In this document: piece after piece, positions 6,811 through 27,532 of the stretch
Position numbering within the stretch: position 1 is the first letter of the stretch
Layout of the letters: each line of letters starts with the position of its first letter
Program-made: the position numbers and the translations under genes
Notes under the pieces: model-generated
Told to the model about the DNA's origin: nothing
Seen by the model: only the letters and a program-made list of their open reading frames with translations
Databases searched by the model: none
Source: an uncultured candidate division Zixibacteria bacterium
GTDB taxonomy: Bacteria; Zixibacteria; MSB-5A5; UBA10806
Direction: 5' to 3'
Assembly (NCBI GenBank): GCA_963817915.1
Contig: CAWFQL010000003.1
Coordinates: forward strand, 57,414 to 121,413
DNA length: 64,000 nt

Positions 6811-9372
6811 TTATGGTTGCTTGGGAGTGAGCAGAAAATTCAGATTTTCCAATGCCGCATTGGTTTCCGATGGGGTTATTTCCATCTCGATAAACCCCGG
6901 CTCGGAAATATACCCAAATTTTATCAGCTGTTCGGAGTTTATATAAATTTTGTATTTTCCCGGTACCAGCCCCTGATAGTAATACTCGCCATTGCTGAAT
7001 GCTGTCACCTCGCTGACAGCTTCTGTGGCCGTATTCATTATCTCCACCTTGAATCCGCCGACTCCAGTCTTGCCCTGGGCTGCTTCCTTTTCTATAAATC
7101 CGCTGATATCGCTGACCACCACGAGCGGAACCTCGACCCCGGTAACAATATTGGGATCGCATAATATCTTATAATTCTCATGCGCCGGCTTCAGGCTGGG
7201 GTTATCGATACTATTTAAATCTATTTGTACCAAATAATAATCGTATGGCCTCAGGCCTTCATAGTAATACACCTTACCCGATGACGCGGCCTTTTCTCTG
7301 CCGCTAACTATTTTTGCTTTGATACCTGAAATAATTTCTTCGTTTTTGTCCCTGACTCCGTCGAAATCATCATCGCGGAAGGGCTTTATTAACGCCGACC
7401 CGAATCCAACGCCGTTTCTACGGTCGAATCTAATCGCTCCGCCTTCGCTGTCATACCGAACCGAACCTTTCTGCACCTGGCTCATCGATGTTGTACTGCC
7501 CGTAGAAAGAACTCTCGATGTAAAATTAGCGAATCCCGTAAAAAGATTGAAGGTCAACATATAGAGATTAGACTTGGAGCTCTCGTTCCGTTCAAATGAT
7601 AACGACAGCTGGCCTGTCCGAAAAACCCTTCGACCCATTACGATACCATAGCTTGCCATTCTATTCTGCATATGATCGAATACAAACTTGAATTTCGGCT
7701 GTACCCACGGGATTAACGAAGTGGAAAGCAAGGCCTGACTGGTCAAATCCTGCGAAGAGCGATTGGGGAATATCGATATCTTATATCTACCCGAATAACT
7801 GAACTGAAATCTATTAAACGAAAGATTGAATCCGTAATTCATATTGATATTATCGAGATTGCGGAATTTATCCCAATTGACATTATATCGAAATCCCAAA
7901 TATCGCCCGCCTATTTTCAATGGCGCCGAGAATGCCATTTGAACACTATGCTGCTGCCCAAATCTGTTTTGGAATTTACTTTCATAATATTTCGTATATC
8001 CCGCGCTGATATTTAAAATCGAAAGCTTGCTGTAGTTAAGCGCCAGGCCGGCAGATTTATTGGGAGCAAAAGATCCGTTAACCGTGAGATTGCCTCCCAT
8101 CTGGTAGGTGGCGTCAGTCCCGAATGATGGCTTTTCATTGTTTCGCGATTCGATCGGCAGATCGGAGCTGACCCCCAATGTCAATTTATCGCTTATGCCG
8201 TAATATGAAGTAGCCTGAGCGTATTTGCTGTTTTCATCCGGAATTGTAGCTGTGCCCGCGGCTACGGAGTATTCGAAATTATTCTTTGGGACCAGATTAT
8301 ACGGAATTCTGATATATTTTTCCTCCGTTCGTATTTCGCCATTGGGGCCGTACATTTTGAGGGATATTACCGATGCCCCATAGTAAATATCCACATTGAA
8401 ATTGTAATCGCCATTATGATCAGTCGCCTGAAAATCTGTGAGCTTCTGGTCGATATACAATTCGACTTCCCAGCCTTCGCCCAGATGATCCGCGAGATTT
8501 AATGTCTGAAAATATTTTCTCTCGACCTGAGGTTTATTGGTAATCATTCCGCCTTTCAGACCCCTTGAGAAAAGCCCGCTGGTATTGATATTTCCAAGGT
8601 CCGCCTGAGTCAGATAATGATTATCATTGAAAAAGTAATGCCATTTATAAATCATCTGATTGGATTGAATACCCGTGACACTATTGCCGCCGCCGGTCAC
8701 GCTGATATCTCCACCGAGAACAATGCCGCCGGCGTTGAAATCAAAATATTGTCCTCCGCCTCCCAAGGGGCTTGCCGATACCGCCCAATCTACAACTCCG
8801 CCATTAAAAATATCCCGTTTTCGGGGAATTACCTTAACATCCCGCGGCGCCGCGGCCTTGGCCTGAATGCTTTCGTGCTCTAATTTTCGTTTTAATTTTT
8901 GGTACGATGGAAATTCCTTGTTCAATGGGAGATAAACCCGCAAAGCTGAAAATTTGAAATCCATCTTCAAGCCGAAATACTCGTCAAATAGATCAATCCT
9001 CAGATAAAGATCCCGTGAATTCAAATAATAGTCCCATATTCTCAACGGTTTTATCTTGCCGGCGATTTTGGCTTCGGAATTAATCAGGTCAAGTTGATAA
9101 CGCTGATTTGTATTGATGATATAACCCGCGTATCTCAATTTTAGCGAATCATATTCGATATGCAGATCGAGAAGCCCGAATATTTCATTCAACGGCAGAT
9201 AGACCGTAGAGCCGTCATACTGGACAAATAAGTCAGTCCTGATAAGTTGGGGAACATCGAAACCGACAACGATCTCTTCATATGTTTTCTCCTGCGCCAA
9301 CACCAAAGGCGCGGAGAAAAAAAACGATATCAGAACGACCAAGACTAAGTTTCGGTTAATCATTGCAATCAT
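6811..9372 (-). CDS. Outer-membrane fimbrial usher-like protein, last gene of the chaperone-usher pilus operon
   Basis: 853 aa with a signal peptide (MIAMINRNLVLVVLISFFFSAPLVLAQE), a beta-rich central region and C-terminal beta-sandwich-like segments (GFKVEIMNT...GEYYYQGLVPGKYKIYI). Size and operon position (after pilins and chaperone) match ushers. Homology is inferred from architecture and context, not verified by alignment. Confidence 0.55.
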   Translation of the reverse strand: MIAMINRNLVLVVLISFFFSAPLVLAQEKTYEEIVVGFDVPQLIRTDLFVQYDGSTVYLPLNEIFGLLDLHIEYDSLKLRYAGYIINTNQRYQLDLINSEAKIAGKIKPLRIWDYYLNSRDLYLRIDLFDEYFGLKMDFKFSALRVYLPLNKEFPSYQKLKRKLEHESIQAKAAAPRDVKVIPRKRDIFNGGVVDWAVSASPLGGGGQYFDFNAGGIVLGGDISVTGGGNSVTGIQSNQMIYKWHYFFNDNHYLTQADLGNINTSGLFSRGLKGGMITNKPQVERKYFQTLNLADHLGEGWEVELYIDQKLTDFQATDHNGDYNFNVDIYYGASVISLKMYGPNGEIRTEEKYIRIPYNLVPKNNFEYSVAAGTATIPDENSKYAQATSYYGISDKLTLGVSSDLPIESRNNEKPSFGTDATYQMGGNLTVNGSFAPNKSAGLALNYSKLSILNISAGYTKYYESKFQNRFGQQHSVQMAFSAPLKIGGRYLGFRYNVNWDKFRNLDNINMNYGFNLSFNRFQFSYSGRYKISIFPNRSSQDLTSQALLSTSLIPWVQPKFKFVFDHMQNRMASYGIVMGRRVFRTGQLSLSFERNESSKSNLYMLTFNLFTGFANFTSRVLSTGSTTSMSQVQKGSVRYDSEGGAIRFDRRNGVGFGSALIKPFRDDDFDGVRDKNEEIISGIKAKIVSGREKAASSGKVYYYEGLRPYDYYLVQIDLNSIDNPSLKPAHENYKILCDPNIVTGVEVPLVVVSDISGFIEKEAAQGKTGVGGFKVEIMNTATEAVSEVTAFSNGEYYYQGLVPGKYKIYINSEQLIKFGYISEPGFIEMEITPSETNAALENLNFLLTPKQP

Positions 9373-9411
9373 AACGCTCTTAATAGAATTGCTATTTCCC
9401 CCAAAAATAAA

Positions 9412-10278
9412 TTATTCGACTCGGGCAATCACCGAAATTTTATTTCCCGTAACCATATCTTCCGCGGCAATATCCGTGCGGCCTTCGGTCCCGATCGTAA
9501 TCTCAACTCGATATGGAATCGATTTTTTGTCAAAAGCTATCGGGATAACTCTTCTCAGCTTCCGATATACAGCCAGATCTACCTGATTGCTGCCCATCTC
9601 ATTATTGTCCGAATCGAATAATCGTATTTTGAGGACTCCGATATAGGAAACATTGCCTCTGTTGAGCATATCGGTTGTCACCCATACTTTGCCGTTCGCA
9701 AGCTGGGCTAAGGCCTTGACAAGTTGAATTTCCGAATTGAGATTTCCTTTTCGATATTTGAGCATAATCGCCGTCTGGGTGACCAGGCTAAGCTTCGTTG
9801 AAATCTGCCCGTTTTCATTTGCGGCGGGCTCTCCGGATTTGGCTTCTTGTGAACGAATAACAATTCTTGCCCAGTATTCGCCTTCAGTCAAATCCGAAGG
9901 AGGGGTTGCTATGATCCTGATGACCTGCGAACCGCTGGGGGGCAGCACGATCTTTCTTGGGAACGCTTTTACCCATCCCATTGCTGAACGCTCGTCGGTA
10001 ACATTGGAATCCTGCAATGTCATAGTGACATTGCCGAGACTATCGGATTCCGGCAGCCCAAAACCGAAAAAGATCGTCACCTCTGCCGCGGTGGCCGATG
10101 GGTTCTGCAATGTCAAACGACCCGTGCGGCTTTTCTCGGACAAAATTACGACTGTCGGCGCAACCAGCACTCCGGCCATCAAATTGACAGCCAACGATAG
10201 TTCAATAATCAAAATGCTTATAAAGACAAATCTTTTGCCGCCGCGCTTGAGCTCGCCGCTTGTTTTCATTTTTCTCAT
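9412..10278 (-). CDS. PapD-like periplasmic pilus chaperone
   Basis: 288 aa with a signal/anchor sequence. N-terminal sequence (APTVVILSEKSRTGRLTLQNPSATAAEVTIFF, PRKIVLPPSGSQVIRIIAT) fits the conserved chaperone beta-strands (…RVIY…; …ivtPPlfrl.pg..q.lRi…). Sits between the pilins and the usher. Confidence 0.55.
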   Translation of the reverse strand: MRKMKTSGELKRGGKRFVFISILIIELSLAVNLMAGVLVAPTVVILSEKSRTGRLTLQNPSATAAEVTIFFGFGLPESDSLGNVTMTLQDSNVTDERSAMGWVKAFPRKIVLPPSGSQVIRIIATPPSDLTEGEYWARIVIRSQEAKSGEPAANENGQISTKLSLVTQTAIMLKYRKGNLNSEIQLVKALAQLANGKVWVTTDMLNRGNVSYIGVLKIRLFDSDNNEMGSNQVDLAVYRKLRRVIPIAFDKKSIPYRVEITIGTEGRTDIAAEDMVTGNKISVIARVE

Positions 10279-10326
10279 TTTATCGCTCCGTTATTTCGCT
10301 ATGAATTAGCCGATTATTATCAAATC

Positions 10327-10929
10327 CTAAAGACCATTGTATGAGACTATAAGCACGATATTGCCGGAGTAACTTCCAGCCTTCTGATTAGCGGATGGAA
10401 TCACCTTGCCTCCGAGATATACCTTCGTATTGCTGCCGGTGCTTCCGATTACCGCTCCAGCCGGTAGATTGAATGGATTCTGATCGATCCAGCCATCGGC
10501 ACCTATCATCGTCGAAGGCGTCGCGGTATTCGATGTATCCACCGCCGCGCTTGTGATCCCGAATGCTATCGTCATTCGATCCGACCCGTCGGCCAACGAT
10601 AGATATTCGGGCAGTACCAGTTGCAAATTCACTCCCGATCCCGCCTGGCCAGCTACAGTGAAAATAGCCGTGGAATCGTCATCATTTCTGCCGACAGTTT
10701 TGGGAATTCCCTGGAATATATTGCCAAAATCCAATGCCTGTGTCGCCGTTACCGTAAGAGCCGCCTGCACTGTCGCGGTGGCCTGCCCAGTCGCCACATC
10801 CTGAGCTAAAGCGGCCACTGTGCTCACTAATATCGAAGCCAGAACAAATGCAAATAACCCTGCTAATCGCTGTTTTCGATTAACGCCAATAACTGATAAA
10901 TTTTTCATAGATCTTTTCACTGCTTTCAC
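10327..10929 (-). CDS. SCPU-domain (Csu-type, sigma/archaic chaperone-usher) pilin paralog 5 of 5
   Basis: 200 aa with signal peptide. Conserved blocks shared by all five paralogs: A.LDFG.IFQGIPK, LPEYL.L.DGSDR, NPF..PAG, YLGGKV.PS.NQKAG.YSG.IVL.VSYN. The LNFG-like and C-terminal G.Y.g.ivLtV.Y motifs are hallmarks of the spore-coat-protein-U/CsuA/B fold. Confidence 0.6.
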   Translation of the reverse strand: MKAVKRSMKNLSVIGVNRKQRLAGLFAFVLASILVSTVAALAQDVATGQATATVQAALTVTATQALDFGNIFQGIPKTVGRNDDDSTAIFTVAGQAGSGVNLQLVLPEYLSLADGSDRMTIAFGITSAAVDTSNTATPSTMIGADGWIDQNPFNLPAGAVIGSTGSNTKVYLGGKVIPSANQKAGSYSGNIVLIVSYNGL

Positions 10930-10940
10930 ATTCCCAATTC

Positions 10941-11501
10941 TTAGCTGCCGTTGTATGAGATAGTCATGACTATATCGCCCGAATAATTTCCAGCCTTTTG
11001 ATTAATCGATGGATTTACTTTTCCTCCCAGATAGATATTGGTGCCCGCGGAGCCGATAACAGTGCCTGCCGGAGGGGCATAAGGGTTGGTATTTTGCCAG
11101 CCACGCGAGGCATTCATGGTTGTCGGATCCGCCGCGCCGGTCGTATCGATAGAGACGTCGGTTGCTCTGAAAGCAATTGGAAGCCTATCGCTGCCATCGG
11201 AGAGCGCCAGATATTCCGGAAGCTGTATAAGAATCTCAATACCCGATCCGCTTTGTCCCGTGATAGTAAAAATCGCCGCGTTGGCAGTATTGTTTGCAAT
11301 TGACTTAGGGATACCCTGGAAAACTTCGCCGAAATTCAATGCGCCGACCGCTGTTACCACGATATTCGATAAGACTGTAGCGTTGGCGTTACCGACCGCT
11401 ATTTCCTGTGAGTTGGCTGTTTTAATTGAAATGAACAACCCCAAAATCAGTACAATTTGTACGAGCGAAACCTGAGTAAATCCGGCGATTTTTTTAAACA
11501 T
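10941..11501 (-). CDS. SCPU-domain pilin paralog 4 of 5
   Basis: 186 aa with signal peptide. ~55% identical to the 10327-10929 paralog by eye (ALNFGEVFQGIPK, LPEYLALSDGSDR, GNYSGDIVMTISYNG). Confidence 0.6.
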   Translation of the reverse strand: MFKKIAGFTQVSLVQIVLILGLFISIKTANSQEIAVGNANATVLSNIVVTAVGALNFGEVFQGIPKSIANNTANAAIFTITGQSGSGIEILIQLPEYLALSDGSDRLPIAFRATDVSIDTTGAADPTTMNASRGWQNTNPYAPPAGTVIGSAGTNIYLGGKVNPSINQKAGNYSGDIVMTISYNGS

Positions 11502-11639
11502 CTCTTTAAAGCCAAAAACCTGTTAATAAATGAAACACTAAACCCTATCTTTTTATCGTCATCCTGTGCAAAAAATTAACAATCGGGGAAGTATTTTGGG
11601 GTAATTGTGAAAATAGGAAGACGCATAAAAAACCAAATA

Positions 11640-14896: not shown

Positions 14897-15157
14897 TTTA
14901 GTTATTCCGTTTCCACTTCATCTTTCCATTTATTACTTTCACACCTAAATACCAAATAACCCATATACGTAATTTAGTTGCAATGGTTCATAATGTCTAA
15001 TCTTATAAAGACGTTTTGTGGCATGCTTGCGTGAAATGCTAACTATCCCGTTGTGCCAGATCGTAGTCCGCCATAGACGAACGTGATCTGGCACCTAAGA
15101 AGCCTGTTTTCCCTGAAAAGGCTTGCTTAATCAGCGTCAAGATGATTAAAATCAAAT

Positions 15158-15670
15158 GTGGATAGGACTATTAGAAACGACAAGAAACATCCGAAAAGAT
15201 CAACAGTCTTTCTCGGGATAATCGGCCAGAAGAAAAGCGGCAAGACGACTCTGGTCGAAAAGCTCGCCTCCGAATTCAAATCACGAGGTCTGACAGTCGG
15301 GACAGTCAAATATTCCTCGCACGATTTGGAATTCGATTCCCCCGGCAAGGATACCGAACGCCACAGGCGGGCGGGTTCGTCCATATCGTTGATAAAGGCC
15401 TCGAAAAATTGCGCCATCTTCTCGGAATCCGAATATCTAACCCAGGAAATGATTACCGAAATATTCAAACCCTGCGATATCGTCTTTATCGAGGGTGATA
15501 CCAAATCCGAGAACCCCAAAATCTATGTTTCCGATGGCCAACCCGTGCGGTCCGGCATCGGCGGCGAGATTATCGCATTCTGGGGTGAAACAGGGCAAAA
15601 GGATAAGCCTTGGTTTGTTGATATCAAGTCAATGACAGATTTTATTTGCGATAATCTTTCAATAAAATAA
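15158..15670 (+). CDS. mobB: Molybdopterin-guanine dinucleotide biosynthesis protein MobB-like P-loop protein
   Basis: 170 aa. Walker A GIIGQKKSGKTTLVEKL. The length and layout are typical of MobB. Confidence 0.55.
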   Translation: MDRTIRNDKKHPKRSTVFLGIIGQKKSGKTTLVEKLASEFKSRGLTVGTVKYSSHDLEFDSPGKDTERHRRAGSSISLIKASKNCAIFSESEYLTQEMITEIFKPCDIVFIEGDTKSENPKIYVSDGQPVRSGIGGEIIAFWGETGQKDKPWFVDIKSMTDFICDNLSIK

Positions 15671-15698
15671 TTCTTCATAAATATGTGGAGGAGCAATA

Positions 15699-15869
15699 AT
15701 GGGCAAAGAACCTGAAATATCAGTTGAGCTTACAGTTAATGGCGAAAAGATTGAGATGAACGAATTCGTTCACAAGGTCACCGGCAACGTAATCAATGGT
15801 ATCCTAAAATCACTCCGTCTCGAAAAACCGCCTCAATCCGCTGTGATTACATTAAAATACAAATCTTAG
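15699..15869 (+). CDS. Small hypothetical protein (56 aa), not in the ORF track
   Basis: atg at 15699 preceded by the Shine-Dalgarno-like sequence tgtggaggag. Translation MGKEPEISVELTVNGEKIEMNEFVHKVTGNVINGILKSLRLEKPPQSAVITLKYKS. Follows mobB with a 28-nt gap. Confidence 0.3.
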   Translation: MGKEPEISVELTVNGEKIEMNEFVHKVTGNVINGILKSLRLEKPPQSAVITLKYKS

Positions 15870-15924
15870 ATCATTTGGCCATGCCTCAGGATTGGAGGTT
15901 TTTTTAGACATCCTGAGGCTTTAT

Positions 15925-16400
15925 TAAAGGTGAGGTCGGGTCGCCTGACCCGACCGACATTGAGTCTCACCTAGTGATGTCGAGTCGCAGTACCTGACCA
16001 GAATCTTCTCCCCGATTTTTGTCGATTATTCTATTTTAATTGAATATTAAAAGTGAGGTCGGGTCGCCTGACCCGACCGACATTGAGTCTCACCTAGTGA
16101 TGTCGAGTCGCAGTACCTGACCAGAATCTTCTCCCCGATTTTTGTCGATTATTCTATTTTAATTGAATATTAAAAGTGAGGCCGGGTCGCCTGACCCGAC
16201 CGACATTGAGTCTCACTTAGTGTCGTTGAATCGCAGAACCCGACTAGAATCTTCCCCCCCGATTTATGTCGATTTTTCTATTTTAATTGAATATTAAAAG
16301 TGAGGTCGGGTCGCCTGACCCGACCGACATTGAGTCTCACCTAGTGATGTCGAGTCGCAGTACCTGACCAGAATCTTCTCCCCGATTTTTGTCGATTATT
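15925..16400. repeat. Tandem array: 4 copies of a ~122-bp non-coding unit
   Basis: The unit is (a/g)gtgaggtcgggtcgcctgacccgaccgacattgagtctcacctagtgatgtcgagtcgcagtacctgaccagaatcttctccccgatttttgtcgattattctattttaattgaatattaaa. Copies begin at ~15928, 16052, 16173 and 16297. Copy 3 diverges (ggccggg, cacttagtgtcgttgaatcgcagaacccgactag, ccccccc). Each unit carries the 20-bp gtcgggtc-gcct-gacccgac palindrome. Confidence 0.85.
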
Positions 16401-16496
16401 CTATTTTAATTGAATATCCCAAATTAATATGCTAATATTGCCGGTCTTATAGAAGGTGGTGGGAAGGGGATTAAATCTTAAAAATAGGGGCCAGGC

Positions 16497-18017
16497 ATGA
16501 ATGCTCAAAAAAGAGAAAATTTATTAAATGAACTATATGGCTATATAAAAGAAGTCACTACTCTCGGCGGCTGCATCGCGCTGCTTGACTGGGACGAGCG
16601 AGTCTATATGCCGCACATGGGCTCCGAAAATCGCGGCAATCAGGTCGCGCTTTTAGCAGGGATCATCCACGATAAATTCACCTCGCCGCGGGTCGGTGAT
16701 ATTCTCAATGAGCTAATAGCCGATGGATTGGATATTAAAGAGGACACGGTTGATTCGGCCAATGTCCGCGAGTTGAAACGAGCCTACGATAAGCAGTTCA
16801 AAATCCCGAAATCATTGATCGAAGAAATAAGCCGTACCGCCACGAGGGCGCAGGGAGTTTGGCAGGACGCCCGTGAAAAATCGGATTTCGCCATGTTTCA
16901 GCCCTGGATGGAAAAAATGGTCGGCCTCAAACGGCAACAAGCCGAGGCGGTCGGATATGTTAAATATCCCTATAACGCTTTATTAGATGATTTCGAACAG
17001 GGAGCCTCCACCGATGATATCACCAAAGTATTCGCCGGTCTGCGCGACGAGCTTGTAGATCTCATTGCCAAAATAAAAAATTCCGGCAAATCACCCGATA
17101 CCTCGATAATCCTGCGAGATTATCCAGTCGAACGGCAGGCACATTTCGGCACTGAAGCTGCCAAGGCAATCGGCTACGATCTTGCCGCCGGACGAATCGA
17201 TATCACCGCCCATCCGTTCTGCACAACTATCGGCCCCGGCGATGTCAGAATCACGACCCGTTATAATCCCAATCATTTCCCGCAGGCATTTTTCGGTATC
17301 ATGCACGAAACCGGCCACGCCATGTACGACCAGGGCCTGCCAATCGAGCATCATGGCACCCCCTGCGGCGAAACAGTCTCGCTGGGAATTCATGAATCGC
17401 AATCGCGAATGTGGGAAAATCTCGTGGGACGAAGCCGGGCGTTCTGGAAACATTTCTACCCCAAGGCACAAGCGCTCTTCCCTGAAGCCCTGAAAAATAT
17501 TTCGCTCGATCAATTTTATTTCGCCATCAATGACGTCAGGCCATCGATGATCCGTATCGAGGCCGACGAGGCCACATATAATCTCCATATCCTGCTTCGA
17601 TTCGAAATGGAGACCGCGTTCTTCCACGACGAAATCAAAATCTCGGATGTCCCCGCCGCCTGGAATGAGAAATTCAAAAAGTATTTCGGTTTAGTCCCCA
17701 AGAATGACGCCGAGGGATGCCTGCAGGATGTTCACTGGTCCGCCGGCTTGATCGGATATTTCCCGACCTACACGCTTGGCAATCTTTATTCAGCTCAATT
17801 CTATGAAACAGCCCAAAAGAGCATCGGAAATCTGGATGATAAATTCGCAAGGGGCGATTTTAGCGATCTCTTGAAATGGTTGCGCGAGAATATCCATCAA
17901 CACGGCCAACGGTACCGTCCCGAGCAATTGGTGATGCGGGCCACCGGCAAGCCGCTTTCCCATCAGCCCTTGATGAATTACCTCAAGACCAAATTCGGCG
18001 AGCTCTACGGGATATAA
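16497..18017 (+). CDS. M32 carboxypeptidase (carboxypeptidase Taq family)
   Basis: 506 aa. HEXXH zinc motif HETGHAMYDQG and the IRIEADEATYNLHILLRFE segment diagnostic of M32. Confidence 0.8.
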   Translation: MNAQKRENLLNELYGYIKEVTTLGGCIALLDWDERVYMPHMGSENRGNQVALLAGIIHDKFTSPRVGDILNELIADGLDIKEDTVDSANVRELKRAYDKQFKIPKSLIEEISRTATRAQGVWQDAREKSDFAMFQPWMEKMVGLKRQQAEAVGYVKYPYNALLDDFEQGASTDDITKVFAGLRDELVDLIAKIKNSGKSPDTSIILRDYPVERQAHFGTEAAKAIGYDLAAGRIDITAHPFCTTIGPGDVRITTRYNPNHFPQAFFGIMHETGHAMYDQGLPIEHHGTPCGETVSLGIHESQSRMWENLVGRSRAFWKHFYPKAQALFPEALKNISLDQFYFAINDVRPSMIRIEADEATYNLHILLRFEMETAFFHDEIKISDVPAAWNEKFKKYFGLVPKNDAEGCLQDVHWSAGLIGYFPTYTLGNLYSAQFYETAQKSIGNLDDKFARGDFSDLLKWLRENIHQHGQRYRPEQLVMRATGKPLSHQPLMNYLKTKFGELYGI

Positions 18018-18034
18018 ATTTTGATTTTGTGTGG

Positions 18035-18255
18035 TCGGGTCGCCTGACCCGACCACAGCTTTGTCATTATCGTAGGGATTTGATTCATCAAACCCCAGAG
18101 CCTGTCATTCCGCACTCGATGCGGAATCTTGCGCGCTCCTAATTGTAGGGCGGAACTCCTGAGTTCCGCCTATTTGTAATCGGCCCAAAAAAGTCCGAAC
18201 CTCGGGGGTTCGGACCTACTAGCTTTTGTGAGGTCAGGTCGCCTGCGACCTGACG
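18035..18255. repeat. BIME-like cluster of about 6 palindromic units
   Basis: gtggtcgggtcgcctgacccgaccac. gtagggatttgattcatcaaacccc. cattccgcactcgatgcggaat. gtagggcggaactcctgagttccgcc. gtccgaacctcgggggttcggacctac. gtgaggtcaggtcgcctgcgacctgacgacc. Confidence 0.7.
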
Positions 18256-18261
18256 ACCGAT

Positions 18262-18885
18262 CTATTTCCGAATCAGCTTTCTAATATCGTCCTGATCGCC
18301 AACCAAAAACGTATGCGGTGTCTTTATCGCTGAATTCAAAAAATGATCATCGCTTTTGAGCTCTTCCCGAAATTCATCGATCGGCAAAATGGTTGGATTG
18401 ATTGTACGGCCCAATAGCTCCTCAGCCTTGCCCACCGCGCTGGCGAATTCGCTGAATTTCAATTTGCCGATAATCGTCAGATCGATATCCTTATGATCCG
18501 TTTCTTCGTCATAGGATGGCAGGCCATCGATATACGCGATCTTGATTTTCTGCTTCATCGGTTTCAACGCCGACTTCAAAATCTCCGCCACACCGAATGT
18601 CTTATACACGATGCCGCGAAGCTCCTTGTAAATCGGGTTGCCCGCGTTGACCGAATAGAATGTCTGCCGCCCGCGGACCTCGGCATTGAGTACTCCGGTC
18701 GAGACCAGCGATTTCAATTCTCTCTGAATCGCTCCCTGACGGGTTCCTGTCGCCCTGGCAACTTCCGAGAAGTAATAATGTTTGTCGCTATTGAGGAAGA
18801 ATAACGACATCACTTTTTTCCTTGTACTGCCGAATAATGATTCAATCATAGCTTGCCTCATAGTCAAATGCCGCTTTAATATCAT
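18262..18885 (-). CDS. Winged-helix (ArsR-like HTH) DNA-binding protein with an uncharacterised C-terminal domain
   Basis: 207 aa. N-terminal HTH pattern FSEVARATGTRQGAIQRELKSLVSTGVL. The C-terminal ~100 aa has no confident assignment. Confidence 0.4.
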   Translation of the reverse strand: MILKRHLTMRQAMIESLFGSTRKKVMSLFFLNSDKHYYFSEVARATGTRQGAIQRELKSLVSTGVLNAEVRGRQTFYSVNAGNPIYKELRGIVYKTFGVAEILKSALKPMKQKIKIAYIDGLPSYDEETDHKDIDLTIIGKLKFSEFASAVGKAEELLGRTINPTILPIDEFREELKSDDHFLNSAIKTPHTFLVGDQDDIRKLIRK

Positions 18886-18944
18886 GCTTACCCATTTCGG
18901 GTATTTTTATACCCAATTTAGGTATTTCCGTCAAGCAGAAGATT

Positions 18945-19355
18945 GCACCTTATTCTGATGTAGTCGTAGGGCGGAACCCCCGTGGTTCCGCCATTCCGAG
19001 TGCGGTCGGGTCTCCGCACCCGACCGAAAACCCCGATATCACCGTAGGGGTTTGATTCATCAAACCCATCTTTGGAAAATCTCAAACATTTCGCAGGGGC
19101 GTTTGAAAAAACGCCCATTTGCTGGGCGGCAGGCGTCCCGCCTGCCCCTTGTATAGAAGGCAAAAAAAGAGTCCGAACCGCGGGGGTTCGGACCTACTGT
19201 AAAACCGTCATTCCGCATCCGTCGGTCGCCGGACTGCAAGGCAGCACCGATGTGGAATCCGCGCGCTCCTAATCGTAGGGCGGAACTCCTGAGTTCCGCC
19301 TATTTGTTTTAGGCAAAAAAAGAGTCCGAACCGCTGGGGTTCGGACCTACCGTAT
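18945..19355. repeat. Dense BIME-like cluster of about 9 GTAG-type palindromic units
   Basis: Units in order: gtagggcggaac-ccccgtgg-ttccgcc. gtcgggtctccgcacccgac. gtaggggtttgattcatcaaaccc. ggggcgtttgaaaaaacgccc. ggcggcaggcgtcccgcctgcccc. gtccgaaccgcgggggttcggacctac. cattccgcatccg...gatgtggaatc. gtagggcggaactcctgagttccgcc. gtccgaaccgctggggttcggacctac. Confidence 0.75.
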
Positions 19356-19381
19356 CGAATGAGTAAATTGGGGGCATGATA

Positions 19382-21637
19382 TCAACTGTCAAATCTCTGC
19401 TTAATGTATTCCTGTGTCTGCTTCGCTGTTAGTTCTGTAGTGGAGGGGCCGGTTCGAATGTAAAACCTTTCAATATCTCCGTCTTTTACAAACTCTGCCT
19501 TAGTCGCCCTACCGCATTTAATGATCATCACTCTGCTATCATCGTAATCTTCAAAGTGAACATGAATTTGGGTCATAGCCAGTGGCCCTATTCTGCTCTT
19601 GACTATATTAACTAAATGCAAGCTCATCTTATCTTCATCGGGGAATCCATCCGCTTTAATATCCGCCGAACCGCCATCATCGTGCACACCAATAATCAAA
19701 GTGCCCCCGTTTGTATTGAGGAATCCTGCGATTGTCTTTAGCATTGATAGTTCAATCCGCTGGTCAGGGCTCCCAGTATGCAGATTTGTTCTTAAGGTCG
19801 CCTTGAATTCGACAGCTTCGGATTCGCCGTTTTCTATTATTTGGCTCAAATCTAGTTCTTTTAATTTAGTGTCCAGGTTTATATCTGCGACTAGTGTTTC
19901 ATACCCTTCACGAATAATTTCAGCCATCAGTTCGCGTCTTTTGACCAGGAAATCATTATATTCTAAGTGTTCCCAGTTTTCGGGTAGCGCGTGCCAATGA
20001 TACATTTCAGATAGTTCATTGTGACCAAATCTAGAATTGAATTCGGCTAAATATTCGGCGGGTGGTTGTATAGAAATTTTTGCATTATCACCCCATTCTA
20101 CGTAGGAGTAATTTGCAATTTGATTGGTTTCTCGAATACCCTTAATATTGATTTCCTTTAGATATTCCTTCGGAAATAGATGATGTCTTTCGACTGCTGA
20201 ACGATTTCCTTGCATTGCCGGGTCAAACAAATCAGCTACTTTGATTTTTGAAAATAACGCTCGAGCGTCTAGAAGTACAAGTGCGGCTTCAAAAGCAAAC
20301 AATGAGGGGCTTCGTGAAGAGGATGTAGCCAAATCGTTTGGCAAAGTGACAATCCAGTAGTCAGATGTTAGAGTAATTTCGCAAATGCTTTCAAGTATCC
20401 GGATGAACTGATCGCCCTCTTTTATTTCCCTGAACCGCGCAAGATCAAACTCCATAGCTGATTCCGGAGAGCCAGTGAACCGGCCGGTGACGCTGGACAT
20501 AAAGAACCAGCGGGCAATAACTCGCCGAAGCTTGAATTCATTTATGCAGTATTCCGTGCGGCCGATCAAGTAAAGAATGTATGAGAATAATAAGTTGTTT
20601 TGGGAACTGATCATCTTACCGCTTCTGAAACCGGCCTGCCTGATACAATTCATGAAATCATGCCAATACTGCAAGTTCAGAACACGACTTTGGGCTTTCT
20701 TTAGAACGTCAAATTGCGCATTCCTTCGCTCTTCGCTAAATTGCTCAGTCTCAAGGTCCTTACCCCGAAGGATAGAATATACATATTGTAGGCGGGCTCG
20801 CTTAAACGCAACTCCGACACTAACTCGGAGGAGCTGATCAGGGCCTGGTTCTATAAAATAGTTGAACGGAGAAGCATCAACCTTTGAGGGTCGCTTGGAA
20901 GCCAGACAAAACTTCTCAAGTTCCTTGCGCCCATCGTCCCAAAATACAGACATTAGAGTCAGAATAAAGTCCGCCTGGTTCAGAGGCGTTCCTTTACTAT
21001 TGATGCGCACAAAGACATCTGAAACATTTTCTTCAGAGATGTTCGGAGCCAATTCAAGAGCGGTGAAAGGAAAGCTCAAAAGTCCATTAAGTTTGGTGAT
21101 AGTCCTCTGAATTCTCCTTTTCTCGTCATCTTCGATTTCTCTGGATTCACTCAATCCAGCTAGGTATTTTTCGACTACTTCAAAGAGATCCGTTTTTTTG
21201 TTCCATAATAAAGAGATATCAGGTATAAATGTTTTATCGCGACGTATCGCGGCGTCGGCAACCTCAAACTTTTCTTCAAGCGGATTGAAGGCTATATATA
21301 TTTGTTCCTTTTCATAATTCTCTCTTATTACAGGAATGCCTTTTACAACAGCATAAAGCGAAGTCAGCCGCTGCTGACCATCAACTATGACAAGGCGTGG
21401 CGATTTTTGTTTATTCTCAGCTCCAATAGTGCGCGAGTCTGCCGCCAAACCGTTTTGCCAAAACAAAAAATATCCCACTGGATACCCTCGATACATCGAA
21501 TCGAAAAGATCCCTAATTTTGGCGTTCTTCCAGACAAACGGTCGCTGAATATCAGGTAAACCAATTTCGCCGAGGGCTATATATTCCATTAGCTTGGATA
21601 AGTCGTAGTCGACCTTTGCGAATAGGGTATCACTCAT
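19382..21637 (-). CDS. GmrSD-like type IV restriction protein (DUF262 + DUF1524) fused to a C-terminal AlbA_2/Schlafen-like domain
   Basis: 751 aa. N-terminal DUF262/ParB-like motif LVIVDGQQRLTSL. Middle His-Me/HNH-like DUF1524 motif (ERHHLFPKEYLK). C-terminal ~150 aa has GESEAVEFKATL...KTIAGFLNTNGGTLIIGVHDDG, a close match to the AlbA_2 (Schlafen-type) signature. GC is visibly lower than in neighbouring genes. Confidence 0.7.
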   Translation of the reverse strand: MSDTLFAKVDYDLSKLMEYIALGEIGLPDIQRPFVWKNAKIRDLFDSMYRGYPVGYFLFWQNGLAADSRTIGAENKQKSPRLVIVDGQQRLTSLYAVVKGIPVIRENYEKEQIYIAFNPLEEKFEVADAAIRRDKTFIPDISLLWNKKTDLFEVVEKYLAGLSESREIEDDEKRRIQRTITKLNGLLSFPFTALELAPNISEENVSDVFVRINSKGTPLNQADFILTLMSVFWDDGRKELEKFCLASKRPSKVDASPFNYFIEPGPDQLLRVSVGVAFKRARLQYVYSILRGKDLETEQFSEERRNAQFDVLKKAQSRVLNLQYWHDFMNCIRQAGFRSGKMISSQNNLLFSYILYLIGRTEYCINEFKLRRVIARWFFMSSVTGRFTGSPESAMEFDLARFREIKEGDQFIRILESICEITLTSDYWIVTLPNDLATSSSRSPSLFAFEAALVLLDARALFSKIKVADLFDPAMQGNRSAVERHHLFPKEYLKEINIKGIRETNQIANYSYVEWGDNAKISIQPPAEYLAEFNSRFGHNELSEMYHWHALPENWEHLEYNDFLVKRRELMAEIIREGYETLVADINLDTKLKELDLSQIIENGESEAVEFKATLRTNLHTGSPDQRIELSMLKTIAGFLNTNGGTLIIGVHDDGGSADIKADGFPDEDKMSLHLVNIVKSRIGPLAMTQIHVHFEDYDDSRVMIIKCGRATKAEFVKDGDIERFYIRTGPSTTELTAKQTQEYIKQRFDS

Positions 21638-21884
21638 TTTGTTATCTCCCCAGTTTCCATTAGGCTTGGTTAATTATTTCCAAAGTGTTATCAACCTTAT
21701 TAAAGGATTAGGCCGCATCCTTCACTTAAGAAGGTCGCTTCCTATTTGTTACTCCATCCCTCTTTCCCATAATAATAGACCTCTTCCCCCAAATTGTCAA
21801 TATATTCCAAAAACTCAAACGGCCGGAATCGCTTCCGGCCGTCGGAGAATGAAATGTCGCTGTTGTTATGTTATTGATTCTTGT

Positions 21885-22075
21885 GTTGTCGGGCCGCCCA
21901 ACCCGACGCCACTAATATGTCATGTCTTTAATTTTTTCCTGCGAGTCACAGTCTATCCGCCAGTGGCGGAGCTTGCCGTGACTGCATCCAATTTTGGTTT
22001 GCGATCAGGGTAAACCCTGACGCGCAGCAATTCCATTTTTTCGTAGAGACGCAAAATCTTGCGTCTCTACATAGT
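21885..22075. repeat. Palindromic repeats flanking the right side of the defence gene
   Basis: gtcgggccgcccaacccgac (variant of the 20-bp palindrome). A gtcacag...cgtgactgc inverted repeat. A perfect GTAG hairpin gtagagacgcaaaatcttgcgtctctac at 22046-22073. Confidence 0.6.
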
Positions 22076-22081
22076 GAATTA

Positions 22082-22606
22082 TCAGGATATAGAGCTGAGC
22101 GTCTTCTCGCCCGGTTTCCATTCCACCTGGCAGAGCTCGCCGGTCTGTAATGCCGCCAACGATCTGAGCGTCTCGCTCACCGAACGGCCGGTGTCGATAT
22201 CGGATACCACCATCCAGCGCAGTACGCCTTCTGGATCGATAATAAATGTGCCGCGTAGCGCCTTGCCGTCGTCCATCAAAATATTATAATTGTCCGATAC
22301 CTTCTTCGATAAATCCGAAAGCAATGGATAGTTGATTTGGCCGAGATCGCCATTGATCCAGGCCTGATGAGAATATACCGAATCCACCGACGCGCCCAAT
22401 ACTACCGCGTTGAGCCTTTCGAAATCGCCATGCCGACGAGAAAATTCACGAATCTCGGTCGGGCATACGAATGTGAAATCGAGCGGATAAAAGAATAATG
22501 TTACCCATTTTCCGCGATAATCCGATAAACTGAATTCGCTGAATTCCCCATTGTGAATACCCTGAAGCTTGAAATCCGGCGCTTTTTGTCCTACCTTGAG
22601 ACTCAT
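22082..22606 (-). CDS. Typical 2-Cys peroxiredoxin (AhpC/Prx1 family)
   Basis: 174 aa. Peroxidatic Cys in FTFVCPTEI and resolving Cys in GELCQVEWKPGEKTL. Confidence 0.8.
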   Translation of the reverse strand: MSLKVGQKAPDFKLQGIHNGEFSEFSLSDYRGKWVTLFFYPLDFTFVCPTEIREFSRRHGDFERLNAVVLGASVDSVYSHQAWINGDLGQINYPLLSDLSKKVSDNYNILMDDGKALRGTFIIDPEGVLRWMVVSDIDTGRSVSETLRSLAALQTGELCQVEWKPGEKTLSSIS

Positions 22607-23049
22607 TTGTCCTCCAAATTGCTATTTTGACATTGTTTACATATACCCATTAATTGTAATGATCCTTCTAAAATCGTATATCCCTCCATCGCCATGTCGG
22701 GCATCAATGATCTGACATCCCGTGGCAATCCGATATCATAAATCCTGTTGCAATTGACACAAATGAAATGCGCGTGCGGCTCGGTGTTGCCATCGTATCG
22801 GTATGTGTTTGAAACCGGATTCACCTTGCGCGCAAATCCAACCTTTTCTAAAAACTCGAGATTTTTATAGACAGTCGCCAACGACACTGTGGGATAATAT
22901 TCCTTCATGGTGTTATAAATATCCTCAGGCGACGGATGAGCCTTAGACCCCCGAAGCAATCCTAACACGGCTAACCTTTGCTCTGTCAACTGGATACCAT
23001 TCTCTTTGCAGTAGTGAATAAAATCGTCAATTCTTGAATCTTTTACCAT
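22603..23049 (-). CDS. Fur-family metalloregulator, PerR-like by context
   Basis: 148 aa. HAHFICVNCNRIYD and a C-terminal CKQC metal site. Its stop overlaps the peroxiredoxin start (ATGA), so it forms an operon with the peroxiredoxin. Confidence 0.75.
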   Translation of the reverse strand: MVKDSRIDDFIHYCKENGIQLTEQRLAVLGLLRGSKAHPSPEDIYNTMKEYYPTVSLATVYKNLEFLEKVGFARKVNPVSNTYRYDGNTEPHAHFICVNCNRIYDIGLPRDVRSLMPDMAMEGYTILEGSLQLMGICKQCQNSNLEDK

Positions 23050-23132
23050 CGTTCCTCCAATACATATTCCTGAACGATAATAATTATTGAATAGTTTCTG
23101 TTATTATAGAATTTTTTTGAAATTGATTAAAA

Positions 23133-23501
23133 TTATGCGATTGCTTTGGACTTGAAAAGCTGGATTAATTCCCTGATGTGATTCATAAGGCAATTAGCGC
23201 CGCAAGGTTCAAGGTTGGAGATATTAAGGCAATGGCCCTTGCAGCCTTCTTTTCCTCTATTCAATTCATGATAAATTGGACCATGGTACAGATCGATAAA
23301 ATTGATCACCTCTATGGCCATTGTCGTGCCGCAACCGGAGGAAATATGATTAAACAAAAAGAGGCCTTCTTCAGGAATATAAAAATCGGGTTGGAATCCT
23401 ATTATCGCGACCTCGGGCGAGATGATAAATTCTCGTCTATTCGTCCAGGATTGCCTGCAATAAGTACAAACTTTGAAAGGTGCCGCGACTAAAGCTTCCA
23501 T
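23133..23501 (-). CDS. Hypothetical Cys-rich protein (122 aa)
   Basis: ORF only. Motifs CTYC, SSGCG, CKGHC and CGANC. It is co-directional with perR-prx and 83 bp upstream of it. An overlapping plus-strand ORF (23178-23492) makes the strand assignment uncertain. Confidence 0.3.
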   Translation of the reverse strand: MEALVAAPFKVCTYCRQSWTNRREFIISPEVAIIGFQPDFYIPEEGLFLFNHISSGCGTTMAIEVINFIDLYHGPIYHELNRGKEGCKGHCLNISNLEPCGANCLMNHIRELIQLFKSKAIA

Positions 23502-25891: not shown

Positions 25892-27532
25892 TTGACCTTT
25901 GGCGCGGGAGGATTACTGACCAAATTAGCGTTTGCCATAACTATCAGCTTAATTATTAATTTCAATGTCTTTGCCCAAGTGGATACATCCTGGGTTCGGG
26001 CATATAATCAGTTTGAAGGCGGAACAGATTGTCCAGTTGCAATTGATGTCGATAATGCCGGAAACGTATATGTGACTGGGGCTAGCCGTGCGGCTACGGG
26101 AGGCGCCAATTTTAATACAATTAAATATAATTCTAATGGAGATACTTCCTGGTTACGGTCATATGGTGGTGGTGGAAATTATGATGATAGTCCCGTGGCA
26201 TTAAAAGTTGATGCTGTGGGTAATGTATATGTGGCTGGGTTTGTCGTATATTACCCTGGAGGGTATGATTATATAATAATCAAATATCTTTCTAATGGCG
26301 ATATCGACTGGATAAGACCATACGAAAATGGAAACATCTACGGTGTTGGTCAATCACTTGTTTTGGGGGGATCTGGAAACATATATTTAACTGGATATGC
26401 AACGGAACCCCATGACAATTGGGATTTGCTGTTAATCAAATATAGGCCTGATGGTGACACTGCTTGGATCAGATCATATAATGGTCCTGCTAATGGCTAT
26501 GAGGCTGGGCAATCAATGTGCGTTGATAATAATGAAAATATAATTATCACCGGCATTATCCAAGATTCACTGACGAGATTTGCCGATATCTTAACAGTTA
26601 AATTTGATTCTTCGGGAAATCAGCTATGGGCCGCAAGGTATAATGGTGCAACGGATTTCTACGATAGCGGCAGATATATTGCGGTCGATAGAGACGGTGC
26701 AGTGTATGTCGCCGCCATTAGCCCTCAGTACAATTCCAACGATGATATCCTCTTGATAAAATATAATGCCGATGGCGATACTGTCTGGACCCGCTTATAT
26801 GATGGGTCTGCACATATGGGTGATTTTGTCACTGGTCTGGGAATAGACTATGAGGGAAATATAATTATTTCCGGACTATTCATGGACGGGTCGCACGAAG
26901 CTTATGACGGAAAGATTATCACGCTGAAATATGATTCTGAAGGAAATATTATCTGGCAGCGCATTTACGGTGAGACTCGTTTGACTTATCCTATTCCTTC
27001 AAGTATGTGTCTTGACGCTGCCGGCAATATTTATATTACCGGCAAAACAGGTCAAGGGCTGCTTGCATTAAAATATTATTCTAATGGCGATTCCGCATGG
27101 TCATGGACTTACATCCCCCACTCATATGGCGGGGCCATTGTCGTCGACGCATTTTCGAATGTTTATTTAACCGGACGCACCTCCGAGTTAGAAGGACAAT
27201 CGCATTACTTAACAATCAAGCTTGTACAAACTGCTTTGGGAACAGATGATTATACAGTTATTTCCAATATCGATTACAATCTCAATTCCAATTACCCCAA
27301 CCCCTTTAATCCATCGACTACTATCAAGTATTCTCTCTCTCAACAATCAAATATTTGTTTATCAGTCTATAATCTGCTAGGCCAAAAGGTAGCAACTTTA
27401 TTTGATGGAAGCGCAGAGGCGGGGGAATACAGTTTAATCTGGAATGCCCGCGATATGCCGTCGGGCATATACTTTGCAAGACTGACAGCCGCTGGCAAAA
27501 CAAGCAACATTAAAATGGTACTAATGAAATAG
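25892..27532 (+). CDS. T9SS-secreted beta-propeller (SBBP-repeat) protein
   Basis: 546 aa with signal peptide. Repeated GN(V/I)Y(V/L)TG / DxxGNxxWxxxY modules (SBBP-type), then the Por C-terminal sorting domain NYPNPFNPSTTIKYSL...GIYFARLTAAGKTSNIKMVLMK. The gene and its upstream spacer are AT-rich. Confidence 0.75.
   Translation: MTFGAGGLLTKLAFAITISLIINFNVFAQVDTSWVRAYNQFEGGTDCPVAIDVDNAGNVYVTGASRAATGGANFNTIKYNSNGDTSWLRSYGGGGNYDDSPVALKVDAVGNVYVAGFVVYYPGGYDYIIIKYLSNGDIDWIRPYENGNIYGVGQSLVLGGSGNIYLTGYATEPHDNWDLLLIKYRPDGDTAWIRSYNGPANGYEAGQSMCVDNNENIIITGIIQDSLTRFADILTVKFDSSGNQLWAARYNGATDFYDSGRYIAVDRDGAVYVAAISPQYNSNDDILLIKYNADGDTVWTRLYDGSAHMGDFVTGLGIDYEGNIIISGLFMDGSHEAYDGKIITLKYDSEGNIIWQRIYGETRLTYPIPSSMCLDAAGNIYITGKTGQGLLALKYYSNGDSAWSWTYIPHSYGGAIVVDAFSNVYLTGRTSELEGQSHYLTIKLVQTALGTDDYTVISNIDYNLNSNYPNPFNPSTTIKYSLSQQSNICLSVYNLLGQKVATLFDGSAEAGEYSLIWNARDMPSGIYFARLTAAGKTSNIKMVLMK

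Follow-up and report, generated by a model that had tools for sequence, protein, structure and literature searches.

In the 64,000-nucleotide window that we analysed, a stretch of one contig from an uncultured Zixibacteria bacterium, the minus-strand gene at 19382..21637 quite probably specifies a single-polypeptide anti-phage enzyme of the BrxU/GmrSD (HEC-05-like) family with a C-terminal Schlafen-type nuclease domain, that is, a member of the DUF262-Slfn class, present here as a solitary, horizontally acquired copy; we base this view on comparison of its sequence and predicted fold with characterised relatives. Evidence from the open reading frame (ORF), Pfam, PADLOC and structure describes an intact 751-amino-acid (aa) protein in which a BrxU/GmrSD-like enzyme is fused to a C-terminal Schlafen/AlbA_2 domain. 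The ORF is complete and keeps all of its catalytic motifs, a GGAG Shine-Dalgarno sequence lies 8-9 nt before its ATG, and the protein aligns over its full length with at least 120 homologues of 56-83% identity. Two Pfam domains are significant, GmrSD_N (PF03235, formerly DUF262) at aa 21-226 (E=1.4e-31; 20960..21577, minus strand like all features of this gene) and SLFN_AlbA_2 (PF04326) at aa 605-736 (E=2.1e-15; 19430..19825), the latter covering profile positions 1-117 of 118 and so exceeding 100 aa. The best PADLOC model is HEC-05, the BrxU family (E=6e-35), and HEC-05 corresponds to BrxU at 99.2% identity (preprint 10.1101/2024.01.29.577857). Within the ParB/Srx-like NTPase domain lie the RDLFDS motif (aa 42-47, 21497-21514) and the DGQQR motif (aa 86-90, 21368-21382), both conserved across 63 diverse relatives, with DGQQR invariant or nearly so. 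The N-terminal hallmarks of the GmrSD family (Machnicka 2015; BrxU 2021) are therefore present, namely a DUF262 domain with DGQQR for nucleoside triphosphate (NTP) hydrolysis and an RLFDS-type NTP-binding motif, together with a hidden Markov model and fold match to BrxU. The original prediction had named a GmrSD-family defence gene with a DGQQR-bearing DUF262 domain and a C-terminal AlbA_2/Schlafen domain, and in all three respects it was borne out by the Pfam and PADLOC searches and, for the tail, by the fold as well. Besides DGQQR, the protein contains the other motifs it quoted: ERHHLFPK starts at aa 483, and the tail has VEFK...FLNTNGGTLIIGV.

The same prediction had assigned a DUF1524 nuclease (HHLFPK), and here the AlphaFold model and its Foldseek match to BrxU suggest that the assignment is correct at the level of fold and motif, although the Pfam search proposed as a check found no PF07510. 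PF07510 (GmrSD_C, DUF1524) gave no match even at E<=10 with the whole protein or with excised fragments, and NCBIfam gave no DUF1524 match in the 751-aa protein. Likewise PF07510 was detected neither in any of 63 diverse representatives from an exhaustive search nor in two distant plasmid relatives, from P. putida (598 aa, 32% identical over aa 1-582) and S. meliloti (711 aa, 24% identical over full length). With the PF07510 test negative, the assignment rested on structure-based evidence. Searches of the PDB with phmmer and a family profile returned BrxU (7p9k) as the sole hit, strong at the N-terminus and with a weak collinear C-terminal piece. An AlphaFold model built on a shallow alignment of 71-83% identity had a predicted local distance difference test score (pLDDT) of 57 and was usable in the tail alone; the model used here, built on 80 sequences of 56-83% identity, has a pLDDT of 83.6 and a predicted template-modelling score (pTM) of 0.67. 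With this model BrxU ranks first in Foldseek (E=2.1e-14) over an alignment that spans the whole 580-residue BrxU chain, and the structure comparison figures were 14.3 for BrxU, 12.3 for the isolated DUF1524 domain of SspE (7dri, 287 residues aligned), 10.0 for the DndI DUF262 protein and 7.8 for SspE. The AlphaFold secondary structure places an all-helical linker, collinear with that of BrxU, at aa 227-440 (20318..20959), followed by a probable, divergent DUF1524-type His-Me (beta-beta-alpha-metal) nuclease module at aa 441-585 (19883..20317), whose motif region is modelled as beta(482-486)-beta(510-514)-alpha(515-521). Inside the module ERHHLFP (aa 483-489, 20171-20191) occupies the place of DHIYP in BrxU (D474/H475) and of EHICP in HEC-06, and the equivalent pairs are essential for defence in both enzymes, D474/H475 in BrxU (PMC8565348) and E471/H472 in HEC-06 (preprint 10.1101/2024.01.29.577857). 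Together with N505...N509...N518 (20084-20125) this motif is near-invariant, with H485 kept in 61/63 relatives, H486 in 59/63, F488 in 60/63, P489 in 61/63, N509 in 62/63 and N518 in 58/63. The Pfam GmrSD_C model thus misses the nuclease module in a clade of hundreds of 50%-identity clusters, so that domain-based defence finders under-annotate it.

Among named systems the body of the protein most resembles BrxU (PADLOC HEC-05, 7p9k, Picton et al. 2021, PMC8565348), in that BrxU, over all of its 587 aa, is collinear with the first ~585 aa here (DUF262 with RLFDS/DGQQR-type motifs, helical linker, DUF1524-type nuclease) and in that relatives of the present gene also sit within BREX or type I restriction-modification (R-M) loci. 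It differs in sharing only 16-19% identity over the structural alignment, in having HHLFP for DHIYP with no PF07510 match, and in carrying an extra Schlafen domain of ~165 aa. The two-module logic of NTPase plus His-Me nuclease is shared with Eco94GmrSD/EcoCTGmrSD and SspE; however, the PADLOC SspE models match just the N-terminal ~80 residues (E about 1e-4), and whereas SspE senses phosphorothioate and nicks DNA, the present locus has no ssp/dnd context. As a fusion the protein is closest in kind to EcoSlfn7 and the DUF262-Slfn class, with which it shares PF03235 fused to a full-length PF04326 bearing Ex4(E/D)xK (all three features are found here), a single-gene organisation and a family linked to defence loci, although the present gene lies in a Zixibacteria-like genome outside any defence island. 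At the DNA level the gene has no blastn match in any complete E. coli genome, and tblastn of the tail against plasmids found no enterobacterial DUF262-Slfn.

The fold of the Schlafen tail at aa 605-736 is supported by structure matches, and the residues E605-SEAV-E610-F-K612 fit the Ex4(E/D)xK motif of prokaryotic Schlafens, a catalytic-type motif (E605-x4-E610-x-K612, 19802-19825) that is accompanied by D653 in the same domain. These four residues are invariant in 80 family members, and most of the 25 distant members in which the domain occurs also keep them. Ex4ExK is the catalytic signature of SLFN11 and prokaryotic Schlafens, whose class is defined by more than 100 aa of PF04326 plus Ex4(E/D)xK, and RorSlfn5, from another Schlafen class and the only one with a mechanism worked out, cleaves the tRNA anticodon arm (PMC13056530). 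The present tail has one AlbA_2 lobe instead of the two-lobed SLFN core, and its fusion partner is a restriction-enzyme body instead of a helicase or an Ig-like sensor; in this it differs from the group formed by the mammalian SLFN11/13/14 and SAMD9 tRNases and RorSlfn5. By analogy with these relatives, the ParB/Srx-like DUF262 domain would bind and hydrolyse NTP through RDLFDS/DGQQR and govern dimer-to-monomer cycling as in BrxU, the DUF1524-type His-Me finger (HHLFP...N...N) would cut invading DNA, and the Schlafen domain (Ex4ExK plus D653) would add a second activity, most likely tRNA cleavage on activation, as in RorSlfn5 and mammalian SLFN11/13, that would stop translation if restriction of the DNA were not enough. 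The strong conservation of all three active sites in the family suggests that each of them is probably used. The target of characterised GmrSD/BrxU enzymes is DNA with modified cytosines, such as hmC or glc-hmC, and its cleavage depends on NTP. A stronger version of this scheme, which we regard as speculative and on balance doubtful, is a dual-nuclease immune enzyme whose BrxU-like body senses foreign DNA and allosterically activates the Schlafen tRNase in the same dimer, coupling restriction to abortive translation shut-off; in a smaller variant the orphan nucleotidyltransferase described below would be recruited as regulator of the defence gene. If the dual-nuclease reading were true, the extreme conservation across domains of life would reflect a tightly co-adapted machine with three active sites, spreading as a module plugged into type I R-M operons. 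With three conserved active sites and high conservation between bacteria and archaea, the clade would lend itself well to asking whether tRNA cleavage is tied to the restriction of DNA.

Alternatively, the protein could be a classical type IV restriction enzyme only, with AlbA_2 as a non-catalytic nucleic-acid-binding domain or target reader that steers the HNH nuclease to DNA and cuts no RNA. In GmrSD proteins the added AlbA_2 domain has indeed been regarded as one that binds DNA or RNA (PMC5714182), and across the 63 representatives the core of ~582 aa occurs alone or with AlbA_2 (18), Mrr_N (5), RAMA (4), DUF4268 (2), MrcB_N (1) or HEPN (2), of which Mrr_N, RAMA, DUF4268 and MrcB_N are typical DNA readers. 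Nevertheless, we consider a binding-only tail unlikely: E605/E610/K612/D653 match the catalytic Ex4ExK (plus Asp) signature, whose invariance in 80 members a pure binder would not need, the corresponding SAMD9 domain has itself been solved as a tRNase (9o0d), and HEPN RNase domains occupy the same position in two relatives. Several points still weigh against the reading of the gene that we prefer, an anti-phage enzyme with a nuclease in both its body and its tail. The presence, in other members of the clade, of the DNA-reader domains Mrr_N, RAMA, MrcB_N and DUF4268 at the very position of the tail favours a binding or sensing role over an effector. In the nuclease module the acidic residue of (D/E)H is replaced by His (HH) and PF07510 finds no match, so the DNase chemistry may differ. 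The specificity for modified DNA, which is borrowed from GmrSD/BrxU, may not apply, because the phage against which EcoSlfn7 is most effective, T7, has unmodified DNA. More generally, the role proposed for this protein and its clade of at least 56% identity is read from relatives, and its link to EcoSlfn7 is one of shared architecture only, known from the description of that protein. Finally, no PADLOC hit was obtained among the 10 large ORFs within ±15 kb, leaving the local context without other defence genes, and the promoter described below is a consensus match only, in a scan whose total number of sites equals the shuffle expectation, and is thus no more than suggestive.

The combination of domains had been thought to be undescribed, a claim that is refuted by its publication on two occasions and by its abundance. 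Jablonska et al. 2017 (PMC5714182) name AlbA_2 among the domains usually added at the C-terminus of GmrSD proteins, and the DUF262-Slfn class makes up 1.8% of 5,930 prokaryotic Schlafens, its member EcoSlfn7 cutting T7 plating 538-fold (Perez Taboada et al., Nat Microbiol 2026, PMC13056530). A word-indexed search scored at least 8000 homologous proteins, a count to be taken as a lower bound, and the best 120 of these are all ~750 aa long, contain PF03235 and PF04326 and are 71-83% identical; a profile search widened this ~750-aa clade down to 56% identity. An exhaustive search of 1.84 billion representatives gave 13,268 clusters at E<=1e-3 and 789 at E<=1e-30. Named bacterial sources of the clade are Zixibacteria, Desulfobacterota, Planctomycetes, Dehalococcoidia, Anaerolineae and Thermoanaerobacterales, and named methanogens are Methanolobus, Methanohalophilus, Methanospirillum, Methanocalculus and Methanomicrobium. 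The clade is unusually conserved, with at least 70% identity between the Zixibacteria-like genome, Chloroflexi, clostridia and several methanogen orders, and such identity across domains suggests recent and frequent transfer between phyla under strong constraint. Annotation of the gene as a BrxU/GmrSD-like defence enzyme with a Schlafen fusion can be made with confidence and has little consequence for the window; the gene belongs to a known, abundant and already published type, and its solitary position is its sole unusual feature.

That position is best seen against eight sampled contexts of GmrSD-Slfn genes, five of which are embedded in type I R-M operons, one beside BREX and two in defence islands. 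In the loci with 80-83% identical proteins (L046/47, L048-50 and L051) the order is hsdM-hsdS-[683-aa protein]-gene-[variable cargo]-hsdR, and in Methanolobus (L052/53) and Desulfonatronospira (L121) the gene lies directly between hsdS and hsdR with overlapping stop and start codons. In L054 it follows brxL of a BREX locus, and in L122/123 and L124 it sits in islands with Mrr, McrBC, a PLD-helicase, DpnII, an integrase and nSTAND NTPases. The 'guilt by embedding' criterion, which looks for a same-strand gene between core genes of type I R-M, BREX, DISARM or Hma (Payne 2024 preprint), applies to the homologues (L046-L053 and L121, with L054 next to brxL), but not to the window copy. The slot behind GmrSD-Slfn in these R-M operons is a cargo-swapping hotspot, holding an AAA ATPase and an S8 peptidase in L046, PDC-M23A and a DEAD helicase in L048, and SIR2 and short prokaryotic Argonaute (pAgo) genes in L051, where the latter pair (8444-11639; PADLOC pAgo_I, E=2e-189) stands right after GmrSD-Slfn inside the type I R-M operon. 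In the three closest type I R-M contexts the place between hsdS and GmrSD-Slfn is taken by a conserved 683-aa protein (L046 5739-7790, L048 5915-7966, L051 3907-5958), for which neither Pfam nor PADLOC gave a match. It is lacking in the window as well as in the loci of Methanolobus and Desulfonatronospira, and is possibly an uncharacterised embedded defence gene.

In the window, on the other hand, the gene stands among housekeeping genes, with MobB and M32 carboxypeptidase on one side and AhpC/Prx, Fur, a 122-aa ORF, a ComB-type phosphatase and GcvT on the other, and unlike the other eight it has no hsdM/S/R or BREX partners. No match to hsdM/S/R of the homologues' operons was found by tblastn anywhere in the window, and tblastn with all context proteins of the relatives returned the defence gene itself only, with no R-M or BREX remnants; moreover, nucleotide similarity to L051 ends at the limits of the coding sequence. 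The copy appears to have signals of its own. A sigma-70-type promoter-like site (TTGACA-17-TATTAT, 11/12 in a consensus scan) lies ~135 nt upstream of the ATG at 21772..21800 on the minus strand, a terminator-like hairpin with a T-run (21818..21843, minus strand) separates it from the Prx-Fur operon, and terminator-like repeat units, again consensus matches only, follow the stop codon. The gene lies in a variable, repeat-rich spacer between M32 carboxypeptidase and Prx-Fur-ComB-GcvT. Its isolation could suggest a functionless relic, cut loose from a type I R-M operon by escape or excision and now neither expressed nor of use, but we judge this highly improbable given the full-length ORF with all catalytic motifs, the Shine-Dalgarno sequence, the near-consensus promoter-like site and the downstream terminator-like hairpins, the stand-alone copies in other genomes (L122-L124), and the fact that BrxU/HEC-05 and EcoSlfn7 work as single cloned genes (PMC8565348; preprint 10.1101/2024.01.29.577857; PMC13056530). 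As the solitary copy shows, such 'embedded' modules can likewise be kept without a surrounding R-M/BREX operon. The spacer upstream of the gene is filled by a 124-aa plus-strand ORF (21639-22013) that overlaps the promoter-like site and hairpins and has the lowest G+C content at third codon positions (GC3, 0.384) of the local ORFs; it is probably not a gene.

The defence gene was probably acquired horizontally, as judged from protein identities. It shares 72% identity with proteins of Methanolobus and Methanohalophilus and 83% with one from within a foreign type I R-M operon, whereas the flanking housekeeping genes share only 69-78% with those of the nearest available relative and M32 carboxypeptidase reaches at most 72-75% identity to anything in the genome and metagenome collections. 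We take this as the stronger argument for transfer, because the identity of the defence protein to foreign proteins equals or exceeds the housekeeping identity to the nearest relatives. The best M32 relative in the genome collection is 72% identical and shows no downstream synteny, and the sole syntenic locus, L058 from the metagenome collection, has M32 (69%), an unrelated 209-aa gene, ComB (63%) and GcvT (78%). Its M32-ComB interval lacks the defence gene, and likewise the winged helix-turn-helix (wHTH) gene described below, Prx, Fur, the 122-aa ORF and the hairpin clusters, so the interval is variable, although L058 is too distant to define insertion boundaries. No tRNA gene that could serve as an integration site was found in the window. 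Of the proposal that the gene was acquired at a repeat-rich hotspot, then, acquisition is likely in view of the cross-domain identity and the absence of the gene from L058, but the hotspot finds no support, the repeat units being specific to the lineage. A claimed drop in GC content, with the gene on a 'low-GC segment', turned out to be marginal at best: compared with 49 window ORFs the gene has a GC of 0.426 (z=-1.25) and a GC3 of 0.419 (z=-1.44), three window genes are lower in GC, and in the GC and k-mer scan it is no outlier. A strongly anomalous composition was rejected on the same z value and on a tetranucleotide distance that is typical for the length of the gene. The lowest GC and GC3 values in the window belong to 50530-51960 (0.384/0.373) and 25892-27532 (0.416/0.373), both below the defence gene, and the product of the latter is an SBBP beta-propeller protein that has a Por secretion tail.

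Immediately downstream of the defence gene a winged-helix regulator had been described, and a winged-helix gene is in fact present at 18262..18885 on the minus strand; its 207-aa product, however, is not a plain regulator but a wHTH plus minimal nucleotidyltransferase protein, the PADLOC candidate PDC-M05A (E=2.4e-57) without its partner, which does not co-occur with the defence gene in the other loci examined. Homologues combine the wHTH with a minimal nucleotidyltransferase that matches PF18765/PF01909, while the window copy falls below both Pfam models, keeping DxD but reading IDGLPSYDEE where the family has IYGSFARGEE (GS to GL, A124 to S). In other genomes an overlapping 147-aa gene follows, which in L119 is PDC-M05B (E=1e-39); in the window PDC-M05B is absent, with no ORF between 18017 and 18262, and the A+B pair of PDC-M05 is incomplete. 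The 207-aa protein may be a decaying or repurposed orphan. That it might form a new two-gene unit with GmrSD-Slfn, restraining the Schlafen RNase or the HNH nuclease as an 'antitoxin'-type minimal nucleotidyltransferase, or regulating transcription, in place of a lost PDC-M05B, has in its favour that the genes lie side by side on one strand, that both families are typically embedded in R-M/BREX loci, that the nucleotidyltransferase gene lacks its usual partner and has an altered GS motif, and that the two are the sole defence-family hits within ±15 kb; we nonetheless give this very little credence, as a wHTH homologue occurs in none of the eight other GmrSD-Slfn contexts (by tblastn in five, and by domain tables without a nucleotidyltransferase in three), no GmrSD gene occurs in the nucleotidyltransferase contexts examined, the closest relatives differ in identity (83% for the defence protein vs 58% for the nucleotidyltransferase protein), and the 496-bp spacer between the genes is packed with terminator-like hairpins, which argues that they are not an operon.

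The spacers around these genes are rich in palindromes. With a hairpin defined as a stem of at least 8 with at most 1 mismatch, the window contains 44 G+C-rich hairpins vs 14.2±3.7 in dinucleotide shuffles, and the densest 400 bp (18951-19350) contain 8 vs at most 2 in shuffles. This densest cluster, 8 G+C-rich units resembling repetitive extragenic palindromic (REP) sequences, lies just 3' of the defence gene (18951..19355), and in it units of family F2 are followed by T-runs and are terminator-like on the minus strand (19323-19347 and 19170-19194). A second REP-like cluster at 18018..18261 has 5 hairpins built from the same modules, the second-densest 400-bp stretch being 18001-18400. The defence gene had been thought to be bracketed by two of the densest clusters; the one at 18951-19350 is indeed the densest, but that proposed at 21885-22075 has 2 hairpins and is at background, since the spacer upstream of the defence gene (21638-22081) holds 2 vs 1.2 expected (P=0.34). 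In contrast, the spacers 18018-18261 and 18886-19381, which flank the wHTH gene, hold 13/29 intergenic hairpins vs 2.0 expected (P=2e-8), and with the second-densest cluster at 18001-18400 the dense pair brackets the wHTH gene and not the defence gene. The palindromic units fall into the families GGCGGAAC..GTTCCGCC, GTCCGAACC..GGTTCGGAC, GGTCGGGTC..GACCCGACC and GTAGrGrC..CTAC, and families F1-F4 turn up in several spacers, where they are joined into mosaics, for example a composite of ~120 bp at ~18095-18225 that is repeated at ~19234-19355. With such unit families in mosaic intergenic clusters within the window, the label 'REP/BIME-like' (BIME, bacterial interspersed mosaic element) is a fair one. 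In E. coli such elements are short imperfect palindromes that recur between genes throughout the genome, form mosaic clusters and go together with a RAYT transposase. The units are absent from the 120 related loci that we searched, Zixibacteria relatives included, and Rfam gave no match on 15000-23500. Palindromic units also occur at 918-1024 and 22043-22070, and some units with T-runs resemble bidirectional terminators. In the spacer between the mobB-like gene and M32, four tandem units of 123 bp (15922-16417, 92% matches) contain two GGTCGGGTC..GACCCGACC hairpins each.

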